Source: a virus (Duplodnaviria; Caudoviricetes). From it: a DNA stretch of 64,000 bases. The stretch lies in the IMG/VR virus record IMGVR_UViG_3300025316_000016, positions 977-64,976 of that record. One strand, given 5' to 3'. The translations under genes were made by a program, and so were the position numbers. Numbering within the stretch: the stretch's first letter is position 1; the number at the start of each line of letters is the position of its first letter. The notes beneath the pieces are model-generated. The model was not told the DNA's origin. It did no database searches and worked only from the letters and a program-made list of their open reading frames with translations. Shown here in pieces: positions 1,943 to 64,000 of this stretch.

Positions 1943-3568
1943 TTACAATACACGTTTAATGGTATCAAATGCACTATACTCTTCTGGTATAGGCTGATCA
2001 ACTGGTGGATCTAATTGATTCATCATTTGCTGTTGTGTTACAGCATTTGTCACTTCAACAGGAACATCAAAACCTTCTTTCTTTTCCTTTGCGATTTCTG
2101 CTGTCATATCTTCGATCTGAACATCTGTTAATCTTAATACTTTACGTTGAATCCAAGATTTAGAATAGTATGTTCCAGTATAAGGATCGACTTGACTCAA
2201 TAACGACAATCTTTCTTTCATCAATTCAGCATCTTTCATTTCAGCAAAGTTATTATCTCTGATGAAATCGTAGTATATATGTTCTTTAAAGTCTTCCCAC
2301 TCTTCGGCTGTGCATATGCCTTTCAACACACACTGTGCGCGTAATGCTTGGTTAAACATGTCAGAGAATTTGTTTCTAAGTCTATCAATAAACTTAGCGA
2401 ATTTCAGCTCATCTCTTGTCACTTCTGATACACGACCCAGTGCAAAACCTTGGTTTGGTTCTAAACGTGAAACAGGAACACTTAATGCTTTGTATAGTTT
2501 TCTCTCGAAGTATTTAACATCTTCAAGTTCACCCAAGTTTTGTCCACCTGGTAGTGTAGTAATCTCGGTACCTTTACCACCTTCTCTACGTGGTAACCAG
2601 AAATCTTCCATCATTGACATGAATTTACGATCATCTCGTACTTCACCTGTCGCGGCATCATACACAAGCTTATTCTTGTACTTTGCCATGATGTCACGTA
2701 GGTACTGTTCAGCTTTTAGCTTAGGTAGATTACCCACATCGATATAGAAAATTCTACGTTCTGGTGCTCTAGAAATACGATAGATTACCGTAGCATCTTC
2801 AATCATTCTCAATTGGTTTAGAGGTTTAATTGCTTTGTGTAGATACGACAACACAACTGAACGTCTAGAATCCATTAGTCCAGACACAACTGAAATAATA
2901 GAGTCTGTTGTAATTCTAACACCGGCAGGACCGAAGCTTGATGAACCGCCACCAGCAACTTTATCATTGAATATGTAATACTCATTGATAACATTCATTA
3001 CATCAACTCCAGTACGATCATCCTTCTTCTTTTTAATTTCTCGTACTTTCCTTAGTTTTCTTGGGTCGATATAACGTAATGCTTTAATACCTTCTGTTGG
3101 ATTTTCTTTGTCTATAATGATGTGATAGTACATTTTCCCATCAACATAGTATCTACGAAAGATATCCTGTGCCATATTTTTGTAGTTCAGTAGTTTTAAT
3201 ACTGTAGCAAATTCTTCCCGAATTGCTTTCTTAATCTTATCTGGCTGTTTTAAATCGTCCAGTACGATATCTGTAATTCTTCCATCGTCATCTATACTAA
3301 TTGCTTCATTGACGATATCATCTAGTGCTGATTCAATTTCAGGTTGCATAGCCATTTCACGATAACGAGAAATAAGCTCTACCTCATTTTTGGCAGTACC
3401 ATCCATATCAACATACACACCCATGTGTGCGTTTGATGTGATCGTAATGGCCCCATCTTCGTTGGTTGGCGGGCTAAAGCTTGGCTGTGTCTTTTGGTCT
3501 TCCTCATGCTTTTCACGAGAAAACGTGAACCCAAATAAACTAAATTTTGTCGCACCTTGTGTTGACAT
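1943..3568 (-). CDS. gp20: Portal vertex protein
   Basis: SYLHKAIKPLNQLRMIEDATVIYRISRAPERRIFYIDVGNLPK and EDFWLPRREGGKGTEITTLPGG. Confidence 0.99.
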   Translation of the reverse strand: MSTQGATKFSLFGFTFSREKHEEDQKTQPSFSPPTNEDGAITITSNAHMGVYVDMDGTAKNEVELISRYREMAMQPEIESALDDIVNEAISIDDDGRITDIVLDDLKQPDKIKKAIREEFATVLKLLNYKNMAQDIFRRYYVDGKMYYHIIIDKENPTEGIKALRYIDPRKLRKVREIKKKKDDRTGVDVMNVINEYYIFNDKVAGGGSSSFGPAGVRITTDSIISVVSGLMDSRRSVVLSYLHKAIKPLNQLRMIEDATVIYRISRAPERRIFYIDVGNLPKLKAEQYLRDIMAKYKNKLVYDAATGEVRDDRKFMSMMEDFWLPRREGGKGTEITTLPGGQNLGELEDVKYFERKLYKALSVPVSRLEPNQGFALGRVSEVTRDELKFAKFIDRLRNKFSDMFNQALRAQCVLKGICTAEEWEDFKEHIYYDFIRDNNFAEMKDAELMKERLSLLSQVDPYTGTYYSKSWIQRKVLRLTDVQIEDMTAEIAKEKKEGFDVPVEVTNAVTQQQMMNQLDPPVDQPIPEEYSAFDTIKRVL

Positions 3569-4185
3569 TATATATTTCCTTTCATTTTACAGTTATCGAA
3601 ATGCCATCTTTTAGCATTGCCTCTATTGGTACTAATGTTACAGTATGGACATTCTATTAATATCTTCGCAGCATCACTTATATTTAGTAATGATTTTTCT
3701 GTGTGATAATTTGTAATGCCATTGTTCCAAGAAGACGTTCCCTTTCTGTTTTGTCCCATCAATATCTTTGATTCGTCAGAATGTGTTTTCCCAAGATTTT
3801 TACCCATAGAAGATGATCTGATCTTTTCTATACTTTCTCTAGTGTGGGTCGGATAATATCCAAATGTACCCTCTCCACCCAACGTCATATTATATCCATT
3901 AGAATTTTTGGACTTGATATATGAATTATTCTCAACAATAAAGTAATTTTCCATTACATTTTTACAATAGTTTAGTTCTAGTGATTGATATAAAATAGAC
4001 CAATAAAAGTTGCTCCACCCATATTTTCTTATAGACCTATGAAAATATGTTTTATATCCTGGTTGACCAACACAATTGGCTTCTATCTTATGCCTACCTT
4101 TTCTTCTTTCAAAATCCTTAGCAAAACCAATATAGCATTTACCGGTGACTTTGTTTGTTGCTTTGTATATAGTATATATAATCAT
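3568..4185 (-). mobile_element. Free-standing GIY-YIG homing endonuclease (Seg-like) with NUMOD3-type repeats and C-terminal zinc finger
   Basis: True start at 4185 (AGGAG SD). Motifs TIYKATNKVTGKCYIG, GYNMTLGGEG, HSDESKILM and C-terminal CPYC...RWHFDNCK. Confidence 0.9.
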
Positions 4186-4241
4186 GCTGTATCTCCTATA
4201 AGATATAGAGTTAGTGGATGCTGATACATCTCGACTAACAC
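4186..4241 (-). ncRNA. Structured leader motif, copy 1 (before GIY-YIG gene)
   Basis: GTTAGT-CGA-GATG-loop-CATC-C-ACTAAC, then a second hairpin covering AGGAG, then CAGC-ATG. Covaries with the copies at 60711 and 63968. Confidence 0.65.
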
Positions 4242-4245
4242 TTTC

Positions 4246-4275
4246 AAATAAAGGAGAGAACCGAAGTCCTCTCCT
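4246..4275 (-). terminator. Rho-independent terminator after gp19
   Basis: GGAGAGGAC-TTCG-GTTCTCTCC-TTTATTT with a C(UUCG)G tetraloop. Confidence 0.85.
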
Positions 4276-4282
4276 ATGATGT

Positions 4283-4828
4283 TTATGATGTTGTTGCTGC
4301 ATCCCAGTATTGGTATGCAAAAGTAACGCCATATTCTTCTATCTTATCGTTGTCGCCCCAATCTAGATCAATAGGTGCGATATCAACAGGAAACATACCA
4401 ATAAAGTTGTATGTTTTTAGTATATCACCTTGTTTGCCATACTGAGTAACCATTGCATCAACAGTATATGCAGATGCGCTGCTACTACCACCGGCAGCTC
4501 TAATATTGCTCACATGGGTATTAATACCATTTGACCAAGATTCTAGTGCATTTCTTATAGTGAAATCTTCATCATTAACGATCTGTAATGACCAGTCAGC
4601 GAAAGTTCTGTTACCAGCAAATTTCATTTCACGACCAAAATAATACATTGGAATTGAACCCAAAGATGATCCTGGTAGTTGAGCACCTTTTGCCATGAAT
4701 GTAGTTTTCTGTCCTGCAACAGAACCATTAGCGACAAAAGTTGGGAATGTTAGTGTTACCGAAAATAGATTGGGACGAGCACCGTCACCAATCAGATTCG
4801 AACGAAATTCATTTACATTAAAAGACAT
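4283..4828 (-). CDS. gp19: Tail tube protein
   Basis: GARPNLFSV, FGREMKFAGNRTFADW, IDLDWGDNDKIEEYGVTFAYQYW. Confidence 0.97.
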   Translation of the reverse strand: MSFNVNEFRSNLIGDGARPNLFSVTLTFPTFVANGSVAGQKTTFMAKGAQLPGSSLGSIPMYYFGREMKFAGNRTFADWSLQIVNDEDFTIRNALESWSNGINTHVSNIRAAGGSSSASAYTVDAMVTQYGKQGDILKTYNFIGMFPVDIAPIDLDWGDNDKIEEYGVTFAYQYWDAATTS

Positions 4829-6673: not shown

Positions 6674-8461
6674 TCAATTTCTCATCAACTCACGAAAAAA
6701 TCCAGCATATACTTCACCACTATCAGCTTTCTCCCATACATCACCATCTATCACATCAAACTCATTAGCGAATCCATCTTCAATGATGGGAGCTGGTAGG
6801 GATTCATCATCAACCTGGTTGAGACTCTCAAGCTGAATTTGTTTTCTTATGTCATGTGCAACTATATCACGAAAGTATTTCTGTGTGGTAACCCATGCAA
6901 ATATTACAAGAGTCATTGCTAAATCATCATGTGCATCAGATTCGGCGGCAAATGAAGTTTTGTTAGCAACGAATGTTGTCAGTTCCGATACTGTTTCGAA
7001 GTCACAAATTTGTAGTTTGTTTCCCTCGATCAGAGTCTTTAAATTTGAACAACCTATTCTCTTCACGGCTGGTGACATTTTAAGTCCCATCTGCACACCC
7101 CTACCGAAACCACCACACAACTGCTGAGGTTTCTTGTTTCCGGTCATTATTTTGAACAGGTTTTCGTACTCAAGATCCTGGTGGATAATATCGGCAACTT
7201 GTGGGTTGTTATTTATTTCAACCAAGATGTATGCATCATTATACAAACGTGCTGCATTGTAAATGATAGTTGGGAACAATATCGGTGATATATTTGAGTT
7301 GCAATATGTTGCTACTTGTTTGTATGGTGTCGATGATATGTCAAATACAGAAAACGATGATGCGTCCATGTTCCGACCTTCCGATACATCTACAGAGATA
7401 CAATACAGATGGTCTTTTATTCCATCATCATCGCCTTTGATTGGATACTCATAAATCTTTGTGTCATCGTGTTGTGTGATTGGGTCTATGAACACCAATT
7501 GTTGTAATTTAGTGCTTGATATCAGTGTATTAGTACTGCCGAGGAAATTACAATTAAACTCTTGATCAAAGTTATGATCACCGATGTTCTTTCGTGTTTC
7601 ATCTTCCCACGCCTCATCACGGCCAGGCACTTGTGACCAATGCACCTCATACGTCACATAGTTGTTTCTTTTATTAATAGCATCTGTCCAAATCTTGTAG
7701 AACAGATTCATACCATTTGGTGTAGATACTATTATGATTTTAGTTTTAGTACCGGCAGTAATAACAGGATATACAGACTGCATAAACTCGTTAGCGATAC
7801 TAGATGGTACGAATGCGAACTCATCAAGAAAAACAGTGTTGTATGAACCAGATCGAGATGCTGATGATGACGTTGATGAAGCTACAATCTTTGATCCATT
7901 CTCTAATTCAATAAAACTTTTGTTCCATGTTATAATGCCTTGTTGTAACCAGATAGGAAGATTTTCATATGCTAACTGTAGCTTTCCTAAAATGTCTCGT
8001 GCAGTCTGACCTTTGTTAGCTAGAATTGCTGTATTATGCGCGTCATGGAATAGTACTTCCCATAGCAGATATGCTACAGAAGTTGTTGTATTATGTGATA
8101 GTATGTCGTTAGTATAATATCTATGATGGTCTGAGGCTACTGTTATATCATACATATTATCATCATAACCAAGATTTTGTATGTTCATAATGAGATCAAC
8201 GCCATACCTAGTGATGATCTTAGACTTATTGGGTATTAAATCTTTGCAGAATATTTCTGAATAATCCTCTAAAAATACTATATGGTTATCCGCACACAGA
8301 AATTCTAGACCAGATTCTGTGACTAATTTGAAAACTGTGTATGGAATAGTTTTATGTATTTGAGTTGCGTCACACCACCCGGAATCTGTATCTATTTCCC
8401 ATTCAGTTATATCATAAGACTCTTCAAATTTTCTTGTTACTGTGTCAGAAATTATCTTCAT
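6674..8461 (-). CDS. gp17: Terminase large subunit, C-terminal fragment (split-intein IntC plus C-extein)
   Basis: First 124 aa are intein-like (CADNH; MYDITV...YYTNDILSHN). Then TTTSVAY, Walker B VFLDEFAF, IIVSTPNG, DVSEG, HDDLAM. Confidence 0.95.
   Translation of the reverse strand: MKIISDTVTRKFEESYDITEWEIDTDSGWCDATQIHKTIPYTVFKLVTESGLEFLCADNHIVFLEDYSEIFCKDLIPNKSKIITRYGVDLIMNIQNLGYDDNMYDITVASDHHRYYTNDILSHNTTTSVAYLLWEVLFHDAHNTAILANKGQTARDILGKLQLAYENLPIWLQQGIITWNKSFIELENGSKIVASSTSSSASRSGSYNTVFLDEFAFVPSSIANEFMQSVYPVITAGTKTKIIIVSTPNGMNLFYKIWTDAINKRNNYVTYEVHWSQVPGRDEAWEDETRKNIGDHNFDQEFNCNFLGSTNTLISSTKLQQLVFIDPITQHDDTKIYEYPIKGDDDGIKDHLYCISVDVSEGRNMDASSFSVFDISSTPYKQVATYCNSNISPILFPTIIYNAARLYNDAYILVEINNNPQVADIIHQDLEYENLFKIMTGNKKPQQLCGGFGRGVQMGLKMSPAVKRIGCSNLKTLIEGNKLQICDFETVSELTTFVANKTSFAAESDAHDDLAMTLVIFAWVTTQKYFRDIVAHDIRKQIQLESLNQVDDESLPAPIIEDGFANEFDVIDGDVWEKADSGEVYAGFFRELMRN
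8090..8461 (-). other. Split intein C-fragment (long IntC, 124 aa)
   Basis: Block B CADNH, block F MYDITV, terminal His-Asn followed by Thr+1. Confidence 0.9.
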
Positions 8462-9731
8462 AATTTAACTTAAAACTCTCCTTAAATATTATTGTGGTTT
8501 TTACTTTGTCGCCCATCAGTTCATTGATCTTATTTATCAACACATCAAGATCCACATTTTTAAGAGTTTCTGTCCAACCAAAATTGCCAACCATCTCCAT
8601 TTTTGAAATTATATTGTCTTTAAAAAATACTTGCTTTAATAATTGCTCTGTTTGGAAGCAATGGCTTATATGCGAAACTATCTCTATAATAGTTGTGTAA
8701 TCACCATTCCTAGAGTTTCGTTCTTTTACAGATTTTGATGTTATTCCGATCTTGTAAAAACCATTAGGTAACTCCAATAGATAAAAAATACCATTTCCTA
8801 TAGATTTGTTGGTCCATAAATTTACATATGATAACGAATTTGATTTCTTCTTGTTTATAGCATCAATCTCAGCTTGCGGCCTATCGTTAACAGATTCCTG
8901 CCACTTTTCCTGACGATTTTTCCACACAACAAACCCATTCACATCACCATGTTTTTCTATGCATTTTTTTAATGAGAATGTTGACTGCCTATCTGATAAT
9001 AGCTCTTTAGCCATTCCAACGTCACCGTCAGTTTTCTTTAGCCAGTATCCTATACACGTACTGTCATTACCATTATCTTTTCTAGTTTTTGCTGCTATAT
9101 AACTGAGGTCGGAATAATCTTTATTGTGTGGATTAATAAACTTTATAGAAAATGGTGATAATTTACCTCCATGCTGATACGCGGGATTTTTATCGCCTAA
9201 TACATTATCTCGAATTTTTTGGCACTTTATGGAGCTTATTTTGTATTTGTGTTTATAATCATCTATGTCCATATTATGAACATGCATAATGTGAGGCCCT
9301 AGGTCTCCGCATTTAGCGCCACATTCACCACAGATCAAATAATCATAACCATCAATTAACGAAACATCATCATATTTAGTTTGTCTTTTATTATATTCAT
9401 GGACAGCGATTAGCCTCTTTCTTTCGGTGTCATAGTCAGAACCGCCAGTATTACACCCAAAACATATTGTTGATGATTTCTTTAATTTTTTGAACTTGTT
9501 GCCACAACCAACACAATCCGCAAAGTATCTGGTATAAAATCGATTATCCATAGACAAATCTATTAAATATCCTATGCGCTTAGATATAGAAAAGTCTTCT
9601 GGTACTAGCCCATTTGTATGCTCGATTATATCTTGTGTATGTGCTTTGTATAAGTGGTGTGTCGCTTTATTGTATTTGTTTGTTTCTTTCGCGATTGTTT
9701 GGCAAATCTGTGTTATTTCTAGTATATTCAT
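8445..9731 (-). mobile_element. Putative homing endonuclease between the terminase halves (zinc fingers plus C-terminal GIY-YIG/T5orf172-like domain)
   Basis: CVGC..CFGC and CGEC..H..HVH zinc fingers; C-terminal GIFYLLELPNGFYKIGITSKSVKER...GWTE. Overlaps both gp17 fragments. Confidence 0.7.
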
Positions 9732-9810
9732 AAAATTCTCCTATAGTGATTTCCATTATATCACCAGTTGCTTTATTACGCAACCGTATAGTAGTATTTA
9801 TATCGCAGCA
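9667..9810 (-). other. Split intein N-fragment (short IntN; 47 aa, core about 28 aa)
   Basis: Cys1 immediately follows the Walker A Lys: CCDINTTIRLRNKATGDIMEITIGEFYE. Confidence 0.85.
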
Positions 9811-10068
9811 CTTTCCAACTTGGCGTGGACACTTGGTAATAACGAATCTGTTATCATGGAATGATTTTATCATTTCCTTTTGGAAATCGTACATTTCGAA
9901 AGGTACTAAACCATGATCTAGTGTGATAATTTTGATGTATCTAGAGAAGTATATTGGGTCTCTAGCACACTTCACAAATTCTTCTACTTGTTGCTGTGTA
10001 TAGTCTACATCGACACCAATTTTCTTTAGTAGGGGGTTATCACGATATGCTGTAGATTTAGTAGCCAT
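9667..10068 (-). CDS. gp17: Terminase large subunit, N-terminal fragment (N-extein plus short split-intein IntN)
   Basis: YRDNPLLKK...KCARDPIYF...FEMYDFQ...CPRQVGK, followed by intein block A CCDINTTIRL. Confidence 0.95.
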   Translation of the reverse strand: MATKSTAYRDNPLLKKIGVDVDYTQQQVEEFVKCARDPIYFSRYIKIITLDHGLVPFEMYDFQKEMIKSFHDNRFVITKCPRQVGKCCDINTTIRLRNKATGDIMEITIGEFYEYTRNNTDLPNNRERNKQIQ

Positions 10069-14095: not shown

Positions 14096-14602
14096 TTAAA
14101 CTCCATGATTTGCAAAGTTACCACAATATTTTTCTCGTGCTTCAATAGCAACAAGACCTGCTAAACCTAAATCATCAAAAAAACCTATATGCACTTGTTT
14201 ATTATTAATAGTTAGTTTACATTGCCATTTAGATTTTTGATTACTCCAAAGAACATTTTTATATCCTGAAGTATTGCTTATCGGAATTTTACTATTTAAG
14301 GCATTTTCAGACTTTGTGCAAGATCTCAAGTTTTCTATATGATTATTTTCTCTATTACCATCTATATGGTCAATGTGTTCTGGTATAAATCCATAAGCCA
14401 TTAGATACACTATTTGGTGGGCATACATTCGTACTTTTCCTATACCAACTTTAATATATCCATGCCCACTATGGCATCCTACTGGCTTACCTGACCTTAC
14501 TGAAATTCTGCCTAAGCTAATAACCCTAGTTTTCCAACACAATACTCCATCAATCACTTCATATCTAGCTAAGGCTTTTTCTTGGGTTAAAATTGATTCC
14601 AT
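14096..14602 (-). mobile_element. HNH homing endonuclease with C-terminal AP2-like domain
   Basis: YAHQIVY...IDHIDGNRENNHIENLR; NTSGYKNV.W...KW...HIGFFDD. Confidence 0.92.
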
Positions 14603-39418: not shown

Positions 39419-39425
39419 GTTCTAT

Positions 39426-40229
39426 TTATGCTGCGTTAGGTGCACCAGTATTACCGCCTTGGGCATCTGGGTGAGTATGGTTATCGAGACTTATTTTATT
39501 TGCTATCATGTCACCACCAGAAGTAACTGTAGTACCGACAGTGACAGCACTACCAACACTAGTATTTACCGCAACTGATGCATTTCTCCCAACAACTAAA
39601 TCTATATTAGCTACCACGTTTTGGTTAGCAACAACATTACTTTGAGTTAATATATTGCCAGTAGTTGATAGGTCGCCTATCTGATTTACCGGACCAATGA
39701 AGTTGAATGATGTTGCTTGTGCGGTGAATATTCCACCCACTTTCATAAGCATGTTTCCACCAACCTCCCACTCTACATCACCATCAACTTGTATCTTTGC
39801 ATCACCCTGAACATATATCTTAACATCGCCTTGTATAGTTTCTTGACTATCACCAAGTATGTAAATACTGTTATCCTGTACAACTACCTTAAAATTGTTG
39901 TTCATCACCTTTTCGGTCATAGAACCATCAGGACCAATTTCTTGAAAAGTTCCTGTCCTATGTGCTATATTTATTCGCTCACTTCCTGGGGTATCATCCA
40001 GTTCAAACACATGACCAGAAGGAGTTGTCTGTGCATTGTTGTATGGATACACAGCATCATATGGCGAGTCTGGTTGACTAAATGTGTTGTTCGGGTTAAT
40101 TACAGCATCTAACTCATTAGACTTTAGCTTGTAATTCTTCTTGTTCGTCACGATTTCTGTCAAAATAGCACCTTGTGCTAATGATGATTCGAACGCCATT
40201 TGTAAATCTTGTATTGTTGGGGTGCTCAT
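39426..40229 (-). CDS. gp5: Central spike, C-terminal part (beta-helix plus HxH apex)
   Basis: YPYN...SGHVFELDDTPGSERI...HRTGTF.EI.PDG; (V/I)xGD repeats; ends LDNHTHPDAQGGNTGAP. Confidence 0.85.
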   Translation of the reverse strand: MSTPTIQDLQMAFESSLAQGAILTEIVTNKKNYKLKSNELDAVINPNNTFSQPDSPYDAVYPYNNAQTTPSGHVFELDDTPGSERINIAHRTGTFQEIGPDGSMTEKVMNNNFKVVVQDNSIYILGDSQETIQGDVKIYVQGDAKIQVDGDVEWEVGGNMLMKVGGIFTAQATSFNFIGPVNQIGDLSTTGNILTQSNVVANQNVVANIDLVVGRNASVAVNTSVGSAVTVGTTVTSGGDMIANKISLDNHTHPDAQGGNTGAPNAA

Positions 40230-54855: not shown

Positions 54856-55572
54856 TTATTGAACTAATCCAAACTTCATGTGCGTAGCTTCTTCAACAGC
54901 AGAAACCTGTACTTCGTATTTTGGAAGATCTTTGACTGGTAATGCTGTATTAGGCATCAACCAAGCGTGTATTTTGTTACTCTTCTTTTCGATAACTATT
55001 TTATATAGTCGTGTAGGAATACCCAAACCATTTCCTGTTATGGGATGTCCCTCATCGTAAATACCACCAGATATGATGTAATAATCAGTGCCAACAGTTG
55101 ATGCCAATTGGCGTTCATACGTCTCTAGTTGTTTCCAAATCCCACGATTATTTCCTGACACCTGTGCTACCATATTACTAAGATTAAAACTCTCACTCAT
55201 GATGCCAGCATTTAGGGTGTTATTTCCTGCTGGTGCCATATGACCACGATCGTGTGTTTTACCAACAGTGGCATAATCAGCTAATGTGGCAGAACATTCC
55301 GGTGCAATCAATGCGTCTTGGTGGAAATTGTCCTTACGCTTTGCAGGACCAGTCATCTCTGCAATGGTCAAGTGTTCGAACACAGCCACTGGTGCCTTAA
55401 CAGAACATTTATGAATCACCGCATAATTCAGGTGACAAAGTTCTTGATCACCCGATTGTGCTTGATATGTTGGGGTACCATTAGCAGTGAATTGTGGGCA
55501 GTTATCATCAATTTGACCGGCATATACATGTGATGATAATAACAATGTACATACTAATAATAATTTACTCAT
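54856..55572 (-). CDS. DNA/RNA non-specific endonuclease (DRGH family) with signal peptide
   Basis: HDRGHMAPAG, ESFNLSNMVAQ...NNRGIWKQLE, IPTRLYKIV. Confidence 0.92.
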   Translation of the reverse strand: MSKLLLVCTLLLSSHVYAGQIDDNCPQFTANGTPTYQAQSGDQELCHLNYAVIHKCSVKAPVAVFEHLTIAEMTGPAKRKDNFHQDALIAPECSATLADYATVGKTHDRGHMAPAGNNTLNAGIMSESFNLSNMVAQVSGNNRGIWKQLETYERQLASTVGTDYYIISGGIYDEGHPITGNGLGIPTRLYKIVIEKKSNKIHAWLMPNTALPVKDLPKYEVQVSAVEEATHMKFGLVQ

Positions 55573-56171
55573 CTAAATTCCTTTGCTCCTGGTATACGAC
55601 TCAACTCACGATTAGTGTATCTTTTACCTGTGACAGTACGAGCATTGGCATCCTTAACTAATCCGGCCGCATGTTTCACTAATGCTTTGTGGTAGTTATG
55701 TGCAGCTGCTATGTGCGCGTGTGCAGCAAGTGCTTGCTTCATTTCTTTTCTTGCTTTATGTGCTGACCAGAAGGTGTGGTCTGGACTATCTAACTCAGCT
55801 TGTGCTGCCTTAACTCTTTCCGCTGCCGGAGCAAGTTTTTCTTTAGAAGATGCTGCCAGAGATTTAGTGCGGTCATGGTAATGTTGCATTTTTGTGGCAA
55901 TGTTCTTTGCGTGTTGATGCTTAGAGAATATACCACCAATACTAGCACCGAGACTAACACCATACTTCTCTTGTACAAGAACAAATTCTAATAATGTTTC
56001 ATTAAAATCTTCTTCTGTAGCCGACTCTATTAATGTTGAGTATTGTTCATTAACTGCTGTATACAGGTCATCAATAAACTTCTGATCAAGCATAGATGCA
56101 TCTTCATAGAATATGTCGATGGTGTCTATGATCAATTGTTCGTATAAATCGAAATCTAAATCGGTATTCAT
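55569..56171 (-). CDS. Hypothetical protein: acidic N-terminus, basic His/Ala-rich C-terminus
   Basis: Sharp charge switch near residue 68; second gene behind a late promoter. Confidence 0.7.
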   Translation of the reverse strand: MNTDLDFDLYEQLIIDTIDIFYEDASMLDQKFIDDLYTAVNEQYSTLIESATEEDFNETLLEFVLVQEKYGVSLGASIGGIFSKHQHAKNIATKMQHYHDRTKSLAASSKEKLAPAAERVKAAQAELDSPDHTFWSAHKARKEMKQALAAHAHIAAAHNYHKALVKHAAGLVKDANARTVTGKRYTNRELSRIPGAKEFR

Positions 56172-56887
56172 TAGATTGAACCGGCAACTCTACCAGCAAC
56201 AGACGCTAGTTTGTGTGCACCAGAAGTGACTTTAGTTTTGATCTTATCTTTCAGTGCTGAAATGTGTGAATCAATTTTACTAGCAAGATCTTTAGTGTGT
56301 TGATGATGTGTATCAAGTGCAGTTTTAGTATTTCTTTGGTGTGCCTGTAAATGGCCAGTTAATTCTTGTGCTGCTTTATGTTTAGATATTAGAGTATCTA
56401 ATTTTGATTGTTGGTAAGTGCCTTTCAATCCACTAGCTTTTACTTTAGTATTCTTAGCAGAGTATTCTTTACCTGTAAATTTTCTAGCCACAGAAGATTT
56501 CTTTCTACCAATGCTTTTTTGTTTATCACTGGCAGAAGAAGCAGCTTTACCAGCTTTAATGTTCTTGCGTTTTGCGATATAGTTTTTGTAACCATGTGCA
56601 GCACCAGCAACAAATGAACCGAGAGATTCATCTAGCATCATAGTAATCATTTCTTCGTATAATGCTTCGTTGGCATCAACACCGGTCAATGCTTGGTATG
56701 CTGATTCTTTTAGTGTTAGGTGCTTATAGTTCTCTACGAAATGTTCCATGAAGATTGACGTGATATACGCATCTTCATCGGTCATTTCATATTCTTCGTT
56801 CATGTCATAGTATTCATCAGCAACGGCCTCGACCAATGACATGAATAAATCTTCAGAGTGTAATTTTTGTTCTTCGGTTAAGTACAT
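56171..56887 (-). CDS. Hypothetical protein: acidic N-terminus, Lys/His-rich C-terminus
   Basis: Charge switch at MLDE-SLG; late promoter upstream. Confidence 0.7.
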   Translation of the reverse strand: MYLTEEQKLHSEDLFMSLVEAVADEYYDMNEEYEMTDEDAYITSIFMEHFVENYKHLTLKESAYQALTGVDANEALYEEMITMMLDESLGSFVAGAAHGYKNYIAKRKNIKAGKAASSASDKQKSIGRKKSSVARKFTGKEYSAKNTKVKASGLKGTYQQSKLDTLISKHKAAQELTGHLQAHQRNTKTALDTHHQHTKDLASKIDSHISALKDKIKTKVTSGAHKLASVAGRVAGSI

Positions 56888-56916
56888 AGCGGTTCCTATT
56901 ATTGTGTGGTATTAAG

Positions 56917-56924
56917 TATTTATA
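56917..56924 (-). promoter_or_regulatory. T4-type late promoter TATAAATA
   Basis: Exact match overlapping the phoH stop codon. Confidence 0.8.
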
Positions 56925-57690
56925 ACCCCAAATCTTCACACGTAATGATGAATGATTTGACGAATTTTGATCTAACTATATCGGCGGTATCGAATTGTAT
57001 TAATGTAAACTCGTTCATGGCATTAGCAACAGATAACATAGAATTAAACCCAGTAGAATCATTTCTAGTTTTTAGCAAATCTGTCTGAGAATAATCACCA
57101 CAAAGGATTATTTTAGTATTTTTTCCTAATCGTGTCATAATGGTTTTAATTTCCGCCCAATTAGCATTCTGGATTTCATCAAATATTATTATACTATTAT
57201 CGAATGTTGTGCCTCTAAGAAAGCTTGAGCTGACGAATTCTATGTGGTTTTGTTCGACCAATCGGGAATATGCATCCTTACGATTAAATAATTCTGCACA
57301 CAATTTCATATAAGGGTCACTATATACTGCCAGTTTTTCATCGGCATCACCCGGAAGATATCCCAATTCCCTTGTTGGGACACATGTCCTTATGATAACA
57401 ACTTTTTGAAAACTATTGCCTTTGTCTAAAACCTGTTCTAGTGCTCGATAAAGTGATATTGCGGTCTTACCTGTTCCGGCAGAACCGTACAACATAATAG
57501 CTTCATCTTCATTGGCGTATGCCTCGAAGAATAATTTCTGGTTCTTTGTTAATGGTTTAAATGTTTTTAAATCCTCTATTCGTAACTTGAGTCTATTTGA
57601 TGGTGGTGCTGATCGGTCATTACTTGCTTGGTATTTTGATAAATCTTCAAAATGTGTGTCCACTAGTCGAGATGCCGGTTTACGAGCCAT
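56920..57690 (-). CDS. phoH: PhoH-like ATPase
   Basis: GSAGTGKT, ELGYLPG, SFLRGTTF, IIFDEIQN, TRLG, GDYSQTDL, DIVRS; probable start MARK at 57690. Confidence 0.95.
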   Translation of the reverse strand: MARKPASRLVDTHFEDLSKYQASNDRSAPPSNRLKLRIEDLKTFKPLTKNQKLFFEAYANEDEAIMLYGSAGTGKTAISLYRALEQVLDKGNSFQKVVIIRTCVPTRELGYLPGDADEKLAVYSDPYMKLCAELFNRKDAYSRLVEQNHIEFVSSSFLRGTTFDNSIIIFDEIQNANWAEIKTIMTRLGKNTKIILCGDYSQTDLLKTRNDSTGFNSMLSVANAMNEFTLIQFDTADIVRSKFVKSFIITCEDLGL

Positions 57691-57816
57691 AATTTTCCTT
57701 GTTAGTTTGGGGGAATGTGCCAGAACATTTTCCAGCACTAATTATATATGAGTTTCCTATTTTGGTTAATATTTTCTCCATAGCTAGTTTTTGTGTGTTA
57801 TAAATCAATAACTTAG

Positions 57817-58098
57817 CTACCATTCTCTAGGACATATCGTTTTGTGTCCGGACTTCATAGTATTTTCGCCTACCCTCTCCATCATAGGTCGCACAACGTA
57901 TTTTTCAAATGACGAATCTGCCTTTTTAGTTCCTGGCACACTCATTCTCATAGCATCAGAAAGTACTGGCAAATGTGCAGCACCAAAATACATTTCTAGA
58001 TCAGGGTTAGCTGCTTTGAATTCCTCTAGTTTAGTATAAGACATAGAGTATTCTTTCACTTCACCAGTAACTTTGTTCATAAAATCGTAGTCGCTCAT
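57817..58098 (-). CDS. Conserved small protein (FmdB-like N-terminus, no CxxC)
   Basis: YDFMNKVTGEV...LEEFKAANPDLE; lies upstream of phoH. Confidence 0.7.
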   Translation of the reverse strand: MSDYDFMNKVTGEVKEYSMSYTKLEEFKAANPDLEMYFGAAHLPVLSDAMRMSVPGTKKADSSFEKYVVRPMMERVGENTMKSGHKTICPREW

Positions 58099-58268
58099 TG
58101 TATATCCTCATAAAACACATCATTTAAAATATTTTCGATAATTGTCGGCATTCTTGGTGCTCTTTCTAAAGTTGGATTATCTATCAAAAATTGATCGTAA
58201 TCTTTATTAGGTAGTCTAACCCATATGCTCTCGTTGGTCTCCTTGTTCATGTACTCATATCGAGGCAC
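58095..58268 (-). CDS. Small paralog of 57817-58098 (57 aa, GTG start)
   Basis: Not in the track. MPRYEYMNKETNESIWVRLPNKDYDQFLIDNPTLER...; AGGA SD; ATGA overlap downstream. Confidence 0.65.
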   Translation of the reverse strand: MPRYEYMNKETNESIWVRLPNKDYDQFLIDNPTLERAPRMPTIIENILNDVFYEDIQ

Positions 58269-58277
58269 AATATATTC

Positions 58278-59612
58278 CTATTTAAATTTCCAATCGTTGC
58301 AATAATCAAATTTGTGTAACTGCTTTAATCTATCTTCACATGAGTCACCGATATCTGTACGATATGCAGGATCATTACCTAATTTTACCTGTTTCACTAC
58401 TTTATAAGCAGCATCTTTTGCCTGTGTTATCGTGTCGCCAATGCCCATACACACACATATGTAAGTACCAGCAGTGCCCCACTCAGGGTAGTTTTCTACA
58501 ACTTCATCATCAACCATCTTAATAGTAGATGATAGCTTGATTTCACACGGTGATACCATAGAAATGTCTTTCACATCATCAGTGATTACCGGATAATCTA
58601 GATAGTCTTCGATAGGTTTCTTTGCAAATGGGAAGTCTGAACACGCCATGACAACACCAAGAGCAGTCTCGCCGCCAATAATTTCAAATGTGTCCTTCCC
58701 ATTGATTAGATCGACCATCCATTGAGCAGGATCACCAACGATTAATGATTGTTGAATATTGTGTATAGGGTAGCCTGGACGTTGTGTAAATTCCATTGGC
58801 CAAGGAGTACCATCGTTTTCATCTACTATAACACTAATATCAACGAAACCAACATATTTCAATTCGTGCAATAGCTTTTCTAGGGGTTTCAGCATTATAT
58901 CAGCTAGTTTAGAATCTTTAGTGTATCTTAGCGCCGTCCCCATTTCTCCAGTGCTAACACCAAGATCCCCGTTCATCAGTTTCTTGTGCTCGAAGTTCTC
59001 ACAGAACACGCTATTGAATCCATTAGGACCAAACATACCCATAACAGCAAGTTCAGTACCTTTCTTGAATTCTTGAAGAATGAACTTCGTGATACCTGCT
59101 TTCTTACCAACTTTCTTCATACGAGTAAGAAACCCGATCATGTCTGCTGGATCTTTAGCTAGATACGTTAAAGATTTATCTTCTACAGATCCACAAGGTT
59201 TGCAGCAGTATCTATTTGGATTTGCTTTGACGAAAGCTATTGCTTGGTCATAATTGGAAAATTCGGTTGATGGTATTACTTTGTTGCCACAATCTTTTAT
59301 AGCGTTTTGACCATACATTCTATCTACTTCTAATCGTGCAGATCTTTTATCTGGTCCAAAAACTGGCAACCCTTTTTTGCGAAGTTCTAGAACTTCATCC
59401 ATGAAATCTACATTATCTGCCACGAATATCAAATCGCAGTGTTGTGCATATGATTTAGCTTGTTGCCAGTTGTCGAACTTGTCAACAAGTCCTTGGCCAA
59501 TGGGTTCGGCGATAGGTCCTACTGTGATTAATTTAACTGTGTGTCCAGCGGCGATGCAGTCTAGGCACCAGTGCACACTTAGTGCATATGGATCGATACT
59601 CAAGATATTCAA
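58278..59612 (-). CDS. Divergent PurD (GAR synthetase)-like ATP-grasp ligase
   Basis: VFGP...ARLEVDR, FILQEF..G.E, FEHKKL.NGDLG..TGEMG, MEFTQRPGYP, YRTDIG; TTG start with GGAG SD; no GSGGREHA motif. Confidence 0.8.
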   Translation of the reverse strand: MNILSIDPYALSVHWCLDCIAAGHTVKLITVGPIAEPIGQGLVDKFDNWQQAKSYAQHCDLIFVADNVDFMDEVLELRKKGLPVFGPDKRSARLEVDRMYGQNAIKDCGNKVIPSTEFSNYDQAIAFVKANPNRYCCKPCGSVEDKSLTYLAKDPADMIGFLTRMKKVGKKAGITKFILQEFKKGTELAVMGMFGPNGFNSVFCENFEHKKLMNGDLGVSTGEMGTALRYTKDSKLADIMLKPLEKLLHELKYVGFVDISVIVDENDGTPWPMEFTQRPGYPIHNIQQSLIVGDPAQWMVDLINGKDTFEIIGGETALGVVMACSDFPFAKKPIEDYLDYPVITDDVKDISMVSPCEIKLSSTIKMVDDEVVENYPEWGTAGTYICVCMGIGDTITQAKDAAYKVVKQVKLGNDPAYRTDIGDSCEDRLKQLHKFDYCNDWKFK

Positions 59613-59677
59613 TTTACTCTCCGATAAATGTCTAATATATCAGTATTTAGACATATTAGACACTCGTGTTGAACTGC

Positions 59678-59992
59678 TTAAATTTTAGGTGGTCTACCGC
59701 GACCTCGTGGTGATTCTGCCACAGCATCATCCAATACCGGATATTCTTCCAGAGTTGGACCTTTTAATGACTGCACTCTCTTTGCAATATCATCTGACGA
59801 TATTGTTTGTACGATGAACTGCTTAAACTCGTGGTACCCATTAGTGACATTCATTGGCGCGACACTAGTATCTTTGGTGAAGAACAACGCACACCCACCA
59901 ACACTCAGTGGTGCAACTTCAATGACAGCATCCAAATCAATAATACACAAACACCCTTTATCTTTACTAAAAACTTCTACCTTCACGCCCAT
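59678..59992 (-). CDS. Hypothetical protein with C-terminal AT-hook-like motif
   Basis: Ends PRGRGRPPKI. Confidence 0.65.
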   Translation of the reverse strand: MGVKVEVFSKDKGCLCIIDLDAVIEVAPLSVGGCALFFTKDTSVAPMNVTNGYHEFKQFIVQTISSDDIAKRVQSLKGPTLEEYPVLDDAVAESPRGRGRPPKI

Positions 59993-60288
59993 TAATTACT
60001 CCTCATAGTTGAAAAAAACTCATACACCTTCATTGATATATCAGATACAAACATATGTATAACATCGAAATACATGTACGACAAGGCACCAAAAATCGTC
60101 ACCACGCCCGATAAACACAAAAGTAATGCTATAGACTCACTTCTATACCATTCAATCTCAAGTTCTATCATATCTCTCTGTGCTAGAAAGACATAATTCT
60201 CACCATCATCTTTTAGTATATCCACATTTAGTGCTGACAGTCTTTTATTGGCATACCACCAATAGTATGGAGCAAATAATTTATTCAC
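59992..60288 (-). CDS. Hypothetical membrane protein
   Basis: One hydrophobic segment, IALLLCLSGVVTIFGALSYMYF. Confidence 0.6.
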   Translation of the reverse strand: MNKLFAPYYWWYANKRLSALNVDILKDDGENYVFLAQRDMIELEIEWYRSESIALLLCLSGVVTIFGALSYMYFDVIHMFVSDISMKVYEFFSTMRSN

Positions 60289-60446
60289 CAGTAATTCTCA
60301 CTAAGTTCAAAAGGTTTCTTTGATTTTTGTTTATTGGGTTTGCGGACAGATCTAGGTTCATATCCAGCAAGTTTTTCTTTATTTCTACGAATACCACAGT
60401 CATCTTCTCGACTTCTTTTTGGTAATACATAATCATCTATATTCAT
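60285..60446 (-). CDS. Small basic hypothetical protein
   Basis: Likely start at 60446; overlaps the next gene by 4 bp. Confidence 0.5.
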   Translation of the reverse strand: MNIDDYVLPKRSREDDCGIRRNKEKLAGYEPRSVRKPNKQKSKKPFELSENYW

Positions 60447-60453
60447 TTCGTTC

Positions 60454-60669
60454 TCAAAAATCCCATACAATTTCTAACTTCTTTATGTGTTGATAGTCTT
60501 CCAGCGCATCATTGATATTGCTTTTGTTCGGTGGAATGAACACATAATCAATATCACCTTCTTTTGCTGCAAGCTTTTCGTTTAGGTATTCTATTGCCTC
60601 TAATGCTGTACTAAAGGTTTTCATGTCCTTGTTATTAGCTAGGACGGGTCTGCACACGTATTTTATCAT
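60454..60669 (-). CDS. Hypothetical protein
   Basis: Likely start at 60669 after AGAG. Confidence 0.55.
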   Translation of the reverse strand: MIKYVCRPVLANNKDMKTFSTALEAIEYLNEKLAAKEGDIDYVFIPPNKSNINDALEDYQHIKKLEIVWDF

Positions 60670-60699
60670 GTATATTCTCTTTATCAAATACTAATTTGT

Positions 60700-60767
60700 T
60701 ATAAATAGTTATAGGTCGCGATACTAGACATATCCACCTATTCTAATAACTTACTAGGAGTATCAGC
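60700..60767 (+). ncRNA. Late promoter plus structured leader motif, copy 2
   Basis: TATAAATA (60700-60707), then ATAGGT-CGC-GATA-loop-TATC-C-ACCTAT, an SD-covering hairpin and CAGC-ATG. Confidence 0.7.
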
Positions 60768-61376
60768 ATGAGTATATATGTACCAACATATCTTTATGTC
60801 AAACATCATTCAGTTACAGGTCTAAAATACTTCGGTATGACCACCAGAACAGATCCAATTAAATATCTAGGGTCTGGTAAATACTGGAGATCTCACACCA
60901 AGAAACATGGAGTAACGTTCGTTGAAACCTTGTGGTTAAAATTATTCGATACCCAAGAATTACTAACAGATTTCGCATTATTATTTTCAGAACATTGGGA
61001 CATAGCAAATTCCAATGACTGGGCTAATCTTATACCAGAAAACGGTGTGGGTGGTGTGCGAGGGCTTGTACATTCGGACGAATCTAAATTAAAGATGTCA
61101 CTATCTAAGCTCGGCATACCAACAAAACCACATTCAGCAGAAACCAAATTAAAAATGTCTATCTCACACAAAGGTAAAATTCATTCACCGGAACATGTGG
61201 AAAAGATTGCAGCAACCAAAAGAGGCATACCTCAACCAATTGAACGAAATTTACTACAATCTATCGCCACGAAAGGAATACCAAAACCAATATTGATGTG
61301 TCCGCATTGTAATAAAGTTGGTGGTATTCCGGGTATATATAGATGGCACTTTAATAACTGTAAGTTAAGGGTATGA
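60768..61376 (+). mobile_element. Free-standing GIY-YIG-like endonuclease with NUMOD3-type repeats, antisense to its neighbours
   Basis: TYLYVKHHSVTGLKYFG...YLGSGKYW..H.KKHG; HSDESKLKMS and HSAETKLKMS; CPHC...RWHFNNCK. Confidence 0.85.
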
Positions 61377-61553
61377 TTCGCGCCCCCACTCTACATATTC
61401 TCTCGTTTTTGGATTAAAATAATTTCCGTTTGTAGGATCATAATAATGGACAGTGCCGAATATTCTAATCGGCCCAATAAACCCTTCTCTCTTAGTATAA
61501 CCATCTAAATCCCCACATGTATCTTTTGCTATCGGTTTGAACTGAAGTTTCAT
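61365..61553 (-). CDS. Hypothetical protein
   Basis: Y..REG..GP....G.V.YYDP..G.Y..P.T pattern of small phage proteins. Confidence 0.6.
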   Translation of the reverse strand: MKLQFKPIAKDTCGDLDGYTKREGFIGPIRIFGTVHYYDPTNGNYFNPKTREYVEWGRESYP

Positions 61554-61560
61554 GTGTTCC

Positions 61561-62637
61561 TTATTTGATAGTTGTCAACAAAACTACATCACAATTAATC
61601 CTCCCATTCAAAGGAGACGCGACAGATGTGATGTTAGCCATAATCTTTTTAAGAATCGTTTTCTTACCCTTCACAACATCAGGTATAACTTCCAGTGGCT
61701 TCCTTACTATTTTATTTATGGATAATGTTTCGTCATAATTCTCAATGGTAGTACCTTTGACACTCAAACCAGCCCCATCCTTAGCAACATATACACCTAG
61801 CTTTCTGGTTTTAGTATTGAACACCCATAGTGACTGACACCCAATAATACTCTCTGGTTTGACCGACACAATCTTATATTCAGGATCATCTTTCTTGAAT
61901 ACAAGTTTCAGTATCTTCTTGGATAACGGAACCACTTTCTTCTTGCGTGGTATTTTAGCGACCTTTGCATTAGAAGTAAACTTATTACAATCTGCCAACA
62001 CTAATTGCAGAAACTGATTAAGCTTCTTTATTTCGGTCTTGTTGTAGTTCGAGTACCCCTCAACGAGCTGTTCATCTTTACCAGCAACAACTTCTTTAAC
62101 CTCAATACTTAATGGTTTAAAATGGTCGATGATTTGTTTTGTATGAACAGCCTTACACACTTGCGCTGATAGAAACTCATACACTTTTAATGTGTAATCA
62201 CGTATATCAATAGCATCCTCGATGGTGTTGATGATCTCTGTACAATGGTTGTATATCTTATCCTGGAGAGATACCTTTGGTTTAGTGGGTATCGTGTCGG
62301 GTTTATCCACTACTGGAGCAATATAATTGAACAGCTCATTGATCCTAACATCGATCCAAGAGATTTGTTCAAGTGTTGGTTGGTATCCACGAGAGATCAT
62401 TCTAACAACATACCCAACATTTTTGACTTCCCATTCTGAAACTGATGATATTTTACTAATCATCTTTGGGTCGTATTTGTTGAGTTTCATGTGTGTCACA
62501 AGATACACACGAGAATCTTTGTAGTCCTTCGTGCGAGAATACCAACTTAGACACTCAGTGAAATTGTATGTGTTATCGAATGACGGCTCTTTACCATATA
62601 CAAGATCATCAATGTTTACACGTTTCTTTTCAGCCAT
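61561..62637 (-). CDS. Conserved T4-like hypothetical protein
   Basis: DEQLVEGYS; SVKPESIIG...LWVFNTKTRKLGVY...GLSVKGTTI..YD...S..K.VRKP...NGRIN. Confidence 0.8.
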   Translation of the reverse strand: MAEKKRVNIDDLVYGKEPSFDNTYNFTECLSWYSRTKDYKDSRVYLVTHMKLNKYDPKMISKISSVSEWEVKNVGYVVRMISRGYQPTLEQISWIDVRINELFNYIAPVVDKPDTIPTKPKVSLQDKIYNHCTEIINTIEDAIDIRDYTLKVYEFLSAQVCKAVHTKQIIDHFKPLSIEVKEVVAGKDEQLVEGYSNYNKTEIKKLNQFLQLVLADCNKFTSNAKVAKIPRKKKVVPLSKKILKLVFKKDDPEYKIVSVKPESIIGCQSLWVFNTKTRKLGVYVAKDGAGLSVKGTTIENYDETLSINKIVRKPLEVIPDVVKGKKTILKKIMANITSVASPLNGRINCDVVLLTTIK

Positions 62638-62638
62638 G

Positions 62639-63019
62639 TCAATATACAATTTCCATAGAAGTTACTGAATCAACTCTAAATGATCTGTAACCATCGTTCT
62701 CTACATCGAATACCACGACCACATTATCATTAATCGCTTTTCTTTCTTGTGTTTCAGAAATTAGCTCGATATCGACACCAGATGGATCAACTTCTTTTTG
62801 TGGTAGGTATTGGTCTAATAATGTACCTTTCAATACGCGAACATCGCCGTTAACTTTCGTGAATGTAATATTAGCAACGTTATTATGTAGTATATCAATA
62901 ATCTCATCTCTGTTCATAGTTTTCTCTTTCTTACCCCAAATTAAGTCCCAATTGGCGTTGAATTTGTCTGTATCCACCGCCCTAGCATTACTACCTTTAC
63001 CACCAGCCCACGCTGCCAT
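62639..63019 (-). CDS. WYL_2/Sm-like SH3 beta-barrel protein with N-terminal extension
   Basis: ITFTKVNGDVRVLKGTL...VFDVENDGYRSFRVDSV; possible internal start at 62917. Confidence 0.75.
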   Translation of the reverse strand: MAAWAGGKGSNARAVDTDKFNANWDLIWGKKEKTMNRDEIIDILHNNVANITFTKVNGDVRVLKGTLLDQYLPQKEVDPSGVDIELISETQERKAINDNVVVVFDVENDGYRSFRVDSVTSMEIVY

Positions 63020-63027
63020 AATTTCTC

Positions 63028-63225
63028 CTATGCTACTGAATTAGTTAATGGTGATTTGATATTAACCACCACATCGTTTTCATACAATTCATCGACAATC
63101 AACAATTTTGATTTAGTAATACAATGATTGCAAATGACCGCCCCAGTTTCTGCTATAATCAATATCGTGCCTTGCTTCTTTACAGCTGCACAGAAGCTGC
63201 ATTTTACCTCAGAATCCATGATCAA
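63028..63225 (-). CDS. Stand-alone ClpX-type C4 zinc-finger protein
   Basis: CSFC......LIIAETGAVICNHCI matches the ClpX N-terminal zinc-binding pattern. Confidence 0.7.
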   Translation of the reverse strand: MIMDSEVKCSFCAAVKKQGTILIIAETGAVICNHCITKSKLLIVDELYENDVVVNIKSPLTNSVA

Positions 63226-63874
63226 AATTTACCTCTGCATATGTATCAACTTCCACAACGGGTTCAACTGTCATCTTAGCATACAAGTCAAGGAAACCTG
63301 CTTTGGTTTCATCATCAAAACGATTAGTACATAGAGTGATAGCTTTCATCTTATCATTAAAGATGTTGTATGACTTAGCAATATGTACAAGTCTACGAGT
63401 ACTTATAATCTCGTCAATAGCACCTTCCATATATGTCTTTCTGATAACATCTGCCCACTGAACCAATTCATCGATGAATGATTTGTCGGTAATCAATGGT
63501 GATAGAATCTTCTTCTCTGTCTTAGTATCAGGAAATTCTTGTTCAATAGTAATAACGAAACGTTCCAAGAATGCTGAGTCAAGTATCTGTGATAGATAGT
63601 TTCCATCTTCAGATCCCTTACCCTTTGTGTTAGCGGTAGCGATAATGTTGAATCCAGCTTTAGGATGAATCATTTCACCAGTCTTCTTGTTATAGTACGA
63701 AGCACCTTCAAGGATACCCTGCAAACACATCAACTTAGCACCATTACCACGATCAACCTCATCGCAATTATGTGTTACTACACCATTATATGATACAAAT
63801 GTGTGGTTTTTTCTGACAGTTAATGTTCTGACTGTACCAAGACCCATCTTTGTAATTTTTTTTATTTGTTTCAT
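63209..63874 (-). CDS. Split-intein IntC fused to the C-terminal half of a CobS/MoxR-like AAA+ ATPase
   Basis: 36-aa IntC ending HTFVSYNGVVTHN, then C-DEVD (Walker B), CLQGILEG, FNIIATANTKGKG, AFLERF, ISTRRLVHI. Confidence 0.9.
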   Translation of the reverse strand: MKQIKKITKMGLGTVRTLTVRKNHTFVSYNGVVTHNCDEVDRGNGAKLMCLQGILEGASYYNKKTGEMIHPKAGFNIIATANTKGKGSEDGNYLSQILDSAFLERFVITIEQEFPDTKTEKKILSPLITDKSFIDELVQWADVIRKTYMEGAIDEIISTRRLVHIAKSYNIFNDKMKAITLCTNRFDDETKAGFLDLYAKMTVEPVVEVDTYAEVNFDHGF

Positions 63875-63903
63875 GTTATTCTCAATTGGATTAATGAGGT
63901 TTC

Positions 63904-63931
63904 ATTATACATCATTTTATAAAATTATCAA
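63904..63931 (-). promoter_or_regulatory. Sigma70-like promoter for the IntC-ATPase fragment
   Basis: TTGATA-16 bp-TATAAT about 30 nt upstream of ATG 63874; the region is AT-rich, so a chance match is possible. Confidence 0.55.
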
Positions 63932-63957
63932 CTTTTATGTGCAATTTCTTATATATG

Positions 63958-64000
63958 CTAAATAGGTATAGGTCACGATACCGCAAATATCTACCTATTC
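63958..64000 (+). ncRNA. Late-like promoter plus structured leader motif, copy 3 (cut by the window edge)
   Basis: CTAAATA, then ATAGGT-CAC-GATA-loop-TATC-T-ACCTAT-TC. Confidence 0.65.

Follow-up and report, generated by a model that had tools for sequence, protein, structure and literature searches.

A putative naturally split intein at Walker B of a CobS-like AAA+ ATPase in an uncultured freshwater T4-like myovirus

The ORF of 221 residues that lies closest to the end of the viral DNA studied here is very probably the genuine C-half of a cobS-like gene that is naturally split ('fractured') and belongs to an uncultured freshwater T4-like myovirus, the complete protein presumably being made from two polypeptides by trans-splicing through a mobile intein of the clamp-loader lineage. 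The kind of element is known, but both its host protein and its cut site are new. The DNA analysed, referred to below as the window, is a stretch of 64,000 nucleotides corresponding to bases 977-64976 of a 64,976-nt IMG/VR record, the end of the record coinciding with window base 64000. A PHROG scan of 74 ORFs in the window revealed a T4-like myovirus gene set consisting of portal, sheath, tube, baseplate, TerS/TerL, gp32-like SSB and PhoH. A sequence-only reading of the same DNA had proposed a split intein with its IntC on a CobS/MoxR-like ATPase at Walker B, and this proposal is now supported by the score against an intein family model, by intein-free relatives, by the partners found in relatives and by a controlled fold prediction. 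The features under discussion are collected in Table 1.

Table 1. Positions in the window of the split cobS-like gene, the split TerL gene and other elements mentioned in the text
Feature	Coordinates	Strand	Description
IntC-headed ORF	63209..63874	minus	221 aa; begins MKQIKKITKMGLGTVRTLTVRKNHTFVSYNGVVTHN, then C, then DEVD
IntC (Met1-Asn36)	63767..63874	minus	36 aa; blocks F and G (VRTLTVRKNHTF ... NGVVTHN), penultimate His35, terminal Asn36
Cys+1 codon	63764..63766	minus	first C-extein residue; occupies the Ile position of LLIDEVD in intein-free relatives
C-extein	63209..63763	minus	CobS-like AAA+ ATPase, C-half; starts at Walker B residue Asp38 (DEVD) and runs to the stop; CbbQ_C-like lid included
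Leader	63875..64000	minus	126 nt, up to the contig end
Sigma-70-like promoter match	63904..63931	minus	TTGATA-16-TATAAT; 11/12 to consensus; consensus match only
Zinc-finger gene	63028..63225	minus	65 aa, directly after the cobS half; ClpX-type C4 zinc finger (PF06689, 33.3 bits)
WYL_2 / Sm-like gene	62639..63019	minus	126 aa, after the zinc-finger gene; PF10902
Homing-endonuclease gene	60768..61376	plus	202 aa; phrog_314
Stretch holding this gene	60682..61394		713 nt
Adjacent ORFs	57817..58268	minus	93 and 57 aa; match phrog_385 (transcriptional regulator) positions 1-62 and 1-37
HNH endonuclease gene	14096..14602
TerL N-half	9667..10068	minus	133 aa; Walker A, ...CPRQVGKC plus short Cys-led IntN
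ORF between TerL halves	8445..9731	minus	428 aa; no PHROG match
TerL C-half	6674..8461	minus	IntC of ~124 aa ending SHN, followed by T, before Terminase_6N match
GIY-YIG-type homing-endonuclease gene	3568..4332	minus	254 aa; phrog_314, phrog_5123; between portal and tail-tube genes

The IntC and its CobS-like extein

Translation of the ORF bears out the description of a short basic IntC that is followed by Cys+1 and DEVD, as does the NCBIfam model TIGR01443 (intein_Cterm), which scores 19.7 bits against the whole ORF and 22.9 bits against its first 45 residues, both above the cut-off of 15.6, and aligns to residues 18-37. Pfam returned no match to the short IntC stretch. All of the weak look-alikes are inteins, both in the PDB, where the Spl DnaX mini-intein (7cfv; E 0.27) comes first as a point of likeness to the DnaX clamp-loader inteins and is accompanied by the Pol II large-subunit intein and DnaB, and in NCBIfam (RFC, DnaE-C and DnaB models). 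The IntC contains seven basic and no acidic residues. When residues 1-45 were used to search a set of 5.8 billion proteins for IntC joined to a CobS C-half, all six candidates matched and all had this arrangement. The closest known relatives of the window IntC are those of P0002-P0004, from which it differs at two of 36 residues. Across the CobS C-half proteins, the IntC regions share 83-94% identity and the C-exteins 57-98%; for the window against P0006/P0007, the figures are 83% and 57%, respectively.

His35, Asn36 and Cys37 are invariant in all seven CobS IntC sequences. Block F had been read as lacking its usual Asp, and the HMMER alignment agrees: in the Spl DnaX and DnaB inteins, the Asp of block F is aligned with Thr17. 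Thr17 is likewise invariant (7/7); in the clamp-loader relatives the residue here is Asn. The Asp is usual in block F but lies outside the TIGR01443 cut-off. Judged from the aligned residues, then, the catalytic set is not fully canonical, with Thr17 in place of Asp.

Beyond the IntC, residues 37-205 match positions 199-359 of the 380 in phrog_249 ('porphyrin biosynthesis', CobS-like) with an E-value of 2.2e-57, and Walker A is absent from the ORF, just as had been stated. In Pfam, the extein also matches CbbQ_C (23.8 bits, cut-off 20.6), together with the final portion of AAA_5 (positions 73-133 of 139). The CobS equivalog model TIGR01650 gives 39.3 bits against a cut-off of 558.55 and only half of the protein is present; we therefore refer to the product as CobS-like, or MoxR-type.

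The position of the intein is defined by relatives that do not contain it. In all 20 of the IMG/VR loci that were read, cobS runs uninterrupted through Walker B as ...GA[IV]LL[IV]DEVD..., at up to 93% identity, and none of 80 related IMG/VR loci matches any residue before 37. Two loci (L041 and L042) read ...LLCDEID... and thus have a native Cys at the Cys+1 position, so that Cys appears to be tolerated there. In blastn, homology extends from 63763, where the Asp38 codon starts, for L006 (91.6% identity), L007 and L012, and from 63764 for L008, which places the intein between LL and the residue preceding DEVD (Cys here, Ile or Val in the intein-free alleles). L006, L007 and L008 each contain a whole, uninterrupted cobS of ~380 aa, and the C-extein of the window is 93% identical to those of L006 and L007. 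A small contig from sequencing run X5 departs from the window after 63737 and then, on a reading of its loose letters, continues into an uninterrupted Walker B, indicating that intein-free relatives occur in the same waters.

Among GenBank phages the C-half ORF matched 469 records, of which 40 were listed; 39 of these 40 align only from residue 38 and none contains a credible IntC match. The remaining listed record aligns from residue 27 and was rejected as an IntC candidate, its gene being an uninterrupted cobS. A megablast search with window positions 55000-64000 gave no match.

Partner N-halves and predicted docking

That the N-half does not lie directly upstream, as the sequence-only reading had it, holds for the whole 64,976-nt record: tblastn with the complete L006 cobS finds only the C-half (residues 200-382), and a scan of the record for AAA_5 in search of an N-half gave nothing. 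A weak phrog_249 P-loop match at 56920..57738 was rejected as an N-half and is a PhoH-like gene.

Candidate partners are present in relatives. The N-extein of L006, searched against the 5.8-billion-protein set with the length restricted to 108-345 aa, gave 951 matches at E <= 1e-10. Seven of the 951 were fetched, of which three (P0008, P0009 and P0010; 296-297 aa) terminate in ...LL plus an IntN of 100 residues that has the form CLEKDEEV...TSDHPV...VVSL, the other four being truncated, intein-free CobS fragments. A search with the IntN region itself produced eight matches among 40 candidates, and all eight are CobS N-halves of 274-297 aa (P0008-P0010 and P0128-P0132) with an IntN of 100 residues that carries Cys1 and the block B motif TSDHP. 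With 6-8 basic and 21-24 acidic residues, these IntN regions are acidic. The match of P0008 to Pfam Intein_splicing is below threshold (E 0.00039; 20.7 bits, cut-off 35.8), and the NCBI entry for P0130, from an uncultured phage, bears the name 'ATPase, dynein-related' and no intein annotation.

Three N/C pairs have a longest contig of the same size, namely P0008/P0002 (14124 nt), P0128/P0007 (14093 nt) and P0129/P0006 (88552 nt), the members of the last pair occurring on 21 and 22 contigs. The equality of these sizes suggests that the two halves share a contig in all three. No other split cobS locus was found in IMG/VR using the IntN, the last 30 nt of the window, the N-half alignment or the C-half alignment as queries, the matches to the two alignments being clamp-loader loci or intein-free cobS. 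The N-half alignment found none in GTDB genomes; in GenBank phages, none of 490 records matching the N-half P0130 covers at least 80% of the query; and a JGI metagenome scan returned the source contig as its only split-cobS locus.

The association of the two intein pieces was modelled using the IntN region (alignment A2, residues 188-297 of P0008), which comes from relatives and not from the window phage, together with the first 48 residues of the window ORF (alignment A1). The fold score was 0.72, compared with 0.11 for the best of three controls, and so passes a mark that 116 of 157 solved complexes and two of 215 mismatched pairs also reach, although structures of split-intein complexes have already been solved, and this result may stem from resemblance to them and not from binding by the present copy. 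Contacts agree between the runs to at least 91%, the pLDDT of the partner is at least 70, and residues 1-37 of the IntC are all at the predicted interface.

The chemistry by which split inteins splice, and the 'capture by charge' that brings their halves together, are established intein biochemistry. From these precedents we infer the following course of events. One polypeptide, encoded outside this fragment, would comprise the N-extein with Walker A and the acidic 100-aa IntN. The other, the product of the window ORF, would contribute the basic 36-aa IntC, Cys+1 and the remainder of the ATPase from DEVD onwards. The oppositely charged intein pieces would meet to form one HINT domain, in which Cys1 would form a thioester that is transferred to Cys+1; cyclization of Asn36 would then release the exteins ligated as ...GAILL-C-DEVD.... 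Only the spliced protein would unite Walker A with Walker B on a single chain, and ATPase activity would therefore be expected to depend on splicing.

The two chains might instead dock through their intein pieces and operate as a non-covalent two-chain ATPase with no splicing at all, as the departure from Asp in block F could be taken to imply. This we regard as very improbable, given that Cys1 and TSDHP are kept in 8/8 IntN sequences, that the three residues at the IntC junction are kept in 7/7, and that Cys+1 replaces the native Ile only in intein-bearing alleles, as expected of a nucleophile. Trans-splicing is the reading that we favour. Many of its attributes are familiar from the cyanobacterial DnaE split inteins (Npu/Ssp), which are split 102/36: the canonical split site, the long acidic IntN, the basic IntC of 36 residues, Cys1, His-Asn and Cys+1 are all common to both, and positions 3-37 of the NCBIfam model for the split DnaE C-half align to residues 3-37 of the ORF (E 0.018). 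The similarity in sequence is nonetheless weak, the host protein is a different one, and block F of the CobS intein has Thr instead of Asp. Furthermore, the CobS intein is phage-borne and is present or absent among near-identical alleles.

The locus, its ends and its neighbours

The missing N-half, together with Thr17, might also be taken to indicate that the ORF is a decaying remnant or pseudogene, its N-half having been lost or never linked and its IntC-tagged C-half being non-functional. Decay of this kind is very improbable in a reading frame that is intact over 221 aa, with a C-extein as close to its intein-free counterparts as described above, invariant residues at the splice junction and matching N-halves in eight protein clusters. 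The record is, in addition, only 39% complete (CheckV), and the DNA continues beyond it. A Logan contig of 53,040 nt from run X1 is identical to window positions 62000-64000 over its positions 38211-40211 (0 differences) and extends 12,829 nt past 64000, while another from run X3 (4,412 nt) extends 1,219 nt past the window end. On our preferred reading of a functional split gene, the partner would be encoded by this phage elsewhere in its genome.

An assembly artefact, in which the contig end has truncated a complete mini-intein or a chimeric join, is scarcely credible: the IMG/VR record and the source metagenome contig (JGI) do terminate at the same base, 126 nt upstream of the ORF, and a contig of run X5 ends at 63897, but in-frame stops lie 9-10 codons upstream of the ATG at 63874, so that the IntC ORF stands alone and does not continue a longer frame, all seven IntC homologues (the window included) begin MKQIK, all eight IntN proteins end at the same residue (...[VI]SL), and the IntC/extein junction recurs in Logan contigs of two studies (X1 and X3 in P1; X5, with one difference, in P2), two of them running past 64000; run X1 may be the source sample of the window DNA.

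The leader upstream of the ORF has no homology to the intein-free relatives in blastn. Stops interrupt it in the frame of the ORF. A different frame stays open over 27 codons, beginning at the contig edge and closing with a TGA at 63916-63918; this may represent the end of an upstream or intervening gene, or chance alone. The suggestion that the ORF has its own promoter stands as far as the site itself is concerned, the 11/12 match at 63931..63904 being located ~30 nt before the ATG, whereas the upstream region as a whole contains four promoter-like sites against a mean of 5.1 in shuffles and thus shows no excess. On this consensus match, separate transcription of the two halves, as the sequence-only reading proposed, is a possibility. 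For a divergent element that had also been placed upstream, nothing nameable was found in this region. The segment 63897..63923 around the -10 box recurs with three mismatches on an otherwise unrelated 42-kb contig from run X6, and the end of the X5 contig at 63897 is close to the record end. It is possible that this segment is a shared cassette carrying a promoter, and that assemblies break at it.

On the other side of the cobS half, the zinc-finger and WYL_2 / Sm-like genes have their counterparts in the intein-free relatives, since their DNA adjoins cobS in the DNA alignments of L006-L008 as well. The 202-aa homing-endonuclease gene lies 2 kb away on the opposite strand to the cobS half, within a stretch that is missing from the close relatives L006 and L007, whose alignments skip from 61395 to ~60680; from these alignments, the stretch 60682..61394 is best described as a free-standing mobile insertion. 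With the GIY-YIG-type and HNH genes listed in Table 1, the fragment is rich in mobile nucleases. The two adjacent ORFs that match the start of phrog_385 possibly arose by tandem duplication, or else represent a copy that has been broken.

Mobility, clamp-loader relatives and a second split intein

The IntN regions of P0008 and P0010 are identical at 100 of 100 residues, whereas their N-exteins are only 78% identical, and each has an intein-free twin: L006 is 97% identical to the N-extein of P0008, and L008 is 97% identical to that of P0010. Identical IntN sequences across such lineages, alongside intein-free twins, give the appearance of an element that is mobile now.

The wider family of this intein resides in another AAA+ protein. 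The JGI scan covered 262 stretches that resolved into 11 loci, consisting of the source contig, one intein-free cobS-like locus and nine in which a related IntC heads a different AAA+ protein. PHROGs identifies this protein as a clamp loader (phrog_168), cut near profile position 109, in three of the nine and in L100, the remaining six being assigned as clamp loaders by likeness only. At Walker B of the clamp-loader genes the intein is whole in L093 and L095 and split in L087, L089-L092, L094, L096, L098 and L100. The whole intein is 144-145 aa in length, and both halves of it align to the CobS intein (E 3e-16 and 5e-10). An ORF of 63-499 aa lies between the halves in all six of the split clamp-loader loci that were read (L089, L090, L091, L096, L098 and L100); a TnsA-like endonuclease domain (PF08722) was found in three of four such ORFs tested, and the ORF of L090 has only 63 residues.

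In seven of eight aligned loci, the clamp-loader gene is cut between hhLDE and CD, the cut of L096 being further downstream. The CobS cut, between hLL and CDEVD, is two residues earlier in the motif, such that the CobS inteins differ from those of phage gp44-like clamp loaders both in the cut point within Walker B and in forming a shallow clade of their own. In an IntN tree of 15 sequences, seven from CobS form one such clade (support 99/98, end branches <=0.22), and the clamp-loader sequences fall into three deeper groups. The tree is unrooted, and a direction of movement that places the clamp loader first is consequently one that we infer. In this scheme, an intein lineage whose main site is Walker B in the clamp-loader genes of phages would have entered cobS once and would now be spreading among related phages.

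At the level of sequence, the window contains a second split intein of different architecture, as had been claimed, with a short IntN and a long IntC in the two halves of TerL (Table 1). The latter matches VidaL (E 2.8e-05), gp41-1 and CatC in the PDB. The ORF between the halves has a sub-threshold match to a ROS/MucR zinc finger (25.0 bits, cut-off 25.4). Because this atypically split intein is found in the same phage, both pairs have presumably evolved so as not to cross-react.

The closest precedents in kind are the fractured genes of environmental DNA. In the accessible text of Dassa et al. 2009 (PMC2677866), the hosts given are gp41, IMPDH, DnaE, NrdA, NrdJ, ligase and terminase, with no occurrence of 'ATPase', 'chelatase' or 'clamp'. 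As far as that text goes, the present case resembles gp41-1, gp41-8, NrdJ-1, NrdA-2 and IMPDH-1 in that the break in a phage gene falls at a conserved catalytic motif and leaves one ORF with an IntN and another with an IntC, in its origin from T4-like phages in environmental DNA, and in the opposite charges of the intein halves. In fractured genes of this type the two halves share a locus and are usually separated by a homing-endonuclease gene that stands free; the clamp-loader relatives of the CobS intein likewise have a free-standing nuclease ORF in that place. The differences are the CobS host gene and the nuclease of the clamp-loader relatives, which is TnsA-like (PF08722) and not GIY-YIG. 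The accessible part of Novikova et al. 2016 (PMC4760082) places the intein of DnaX (PolIII gamma) right after Walker B and describes clamp-loader inteins that are whole and that occur in bacteria and archaea, none of them phage-borne or split; 'CobS', 'chelatase' and 'MoxR' occur 0 times. In the literature as far as it was accessible, with InBase and subscription journals outside the scope, no report was found of an intein in the CobS, cobaltochelatase or MoxR family.

These data seem to capture an intein in the course of spreading and suggest that it has jumped from one ATPase family to another. We tentatively put forward the possibility that a clamp-loader intein lineage located at Walker B jumped into CobS two residues off-register and may now be sweeping through freshwater T4-like phages in split form, beside the TerL split intein and with no cross-reaction between the two. 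If true, this would be a rare traceable move of an intein to a new target, and the two split inteins would also constitute a natural pair, available as it stands, that does not cross-react.

Few split inteins occur in nature, and it is these that serve as the working parts in tools for protein ligation. The CobS pair adds to them a new host enzyme, a new cut site in Walker B of a MoxR/CobS-type ATPase and an unusual block F, in which Thr stands for Asp. For the biology of the phage, it would mean that this ATPase becomes active only once both halves have been made and spliced.
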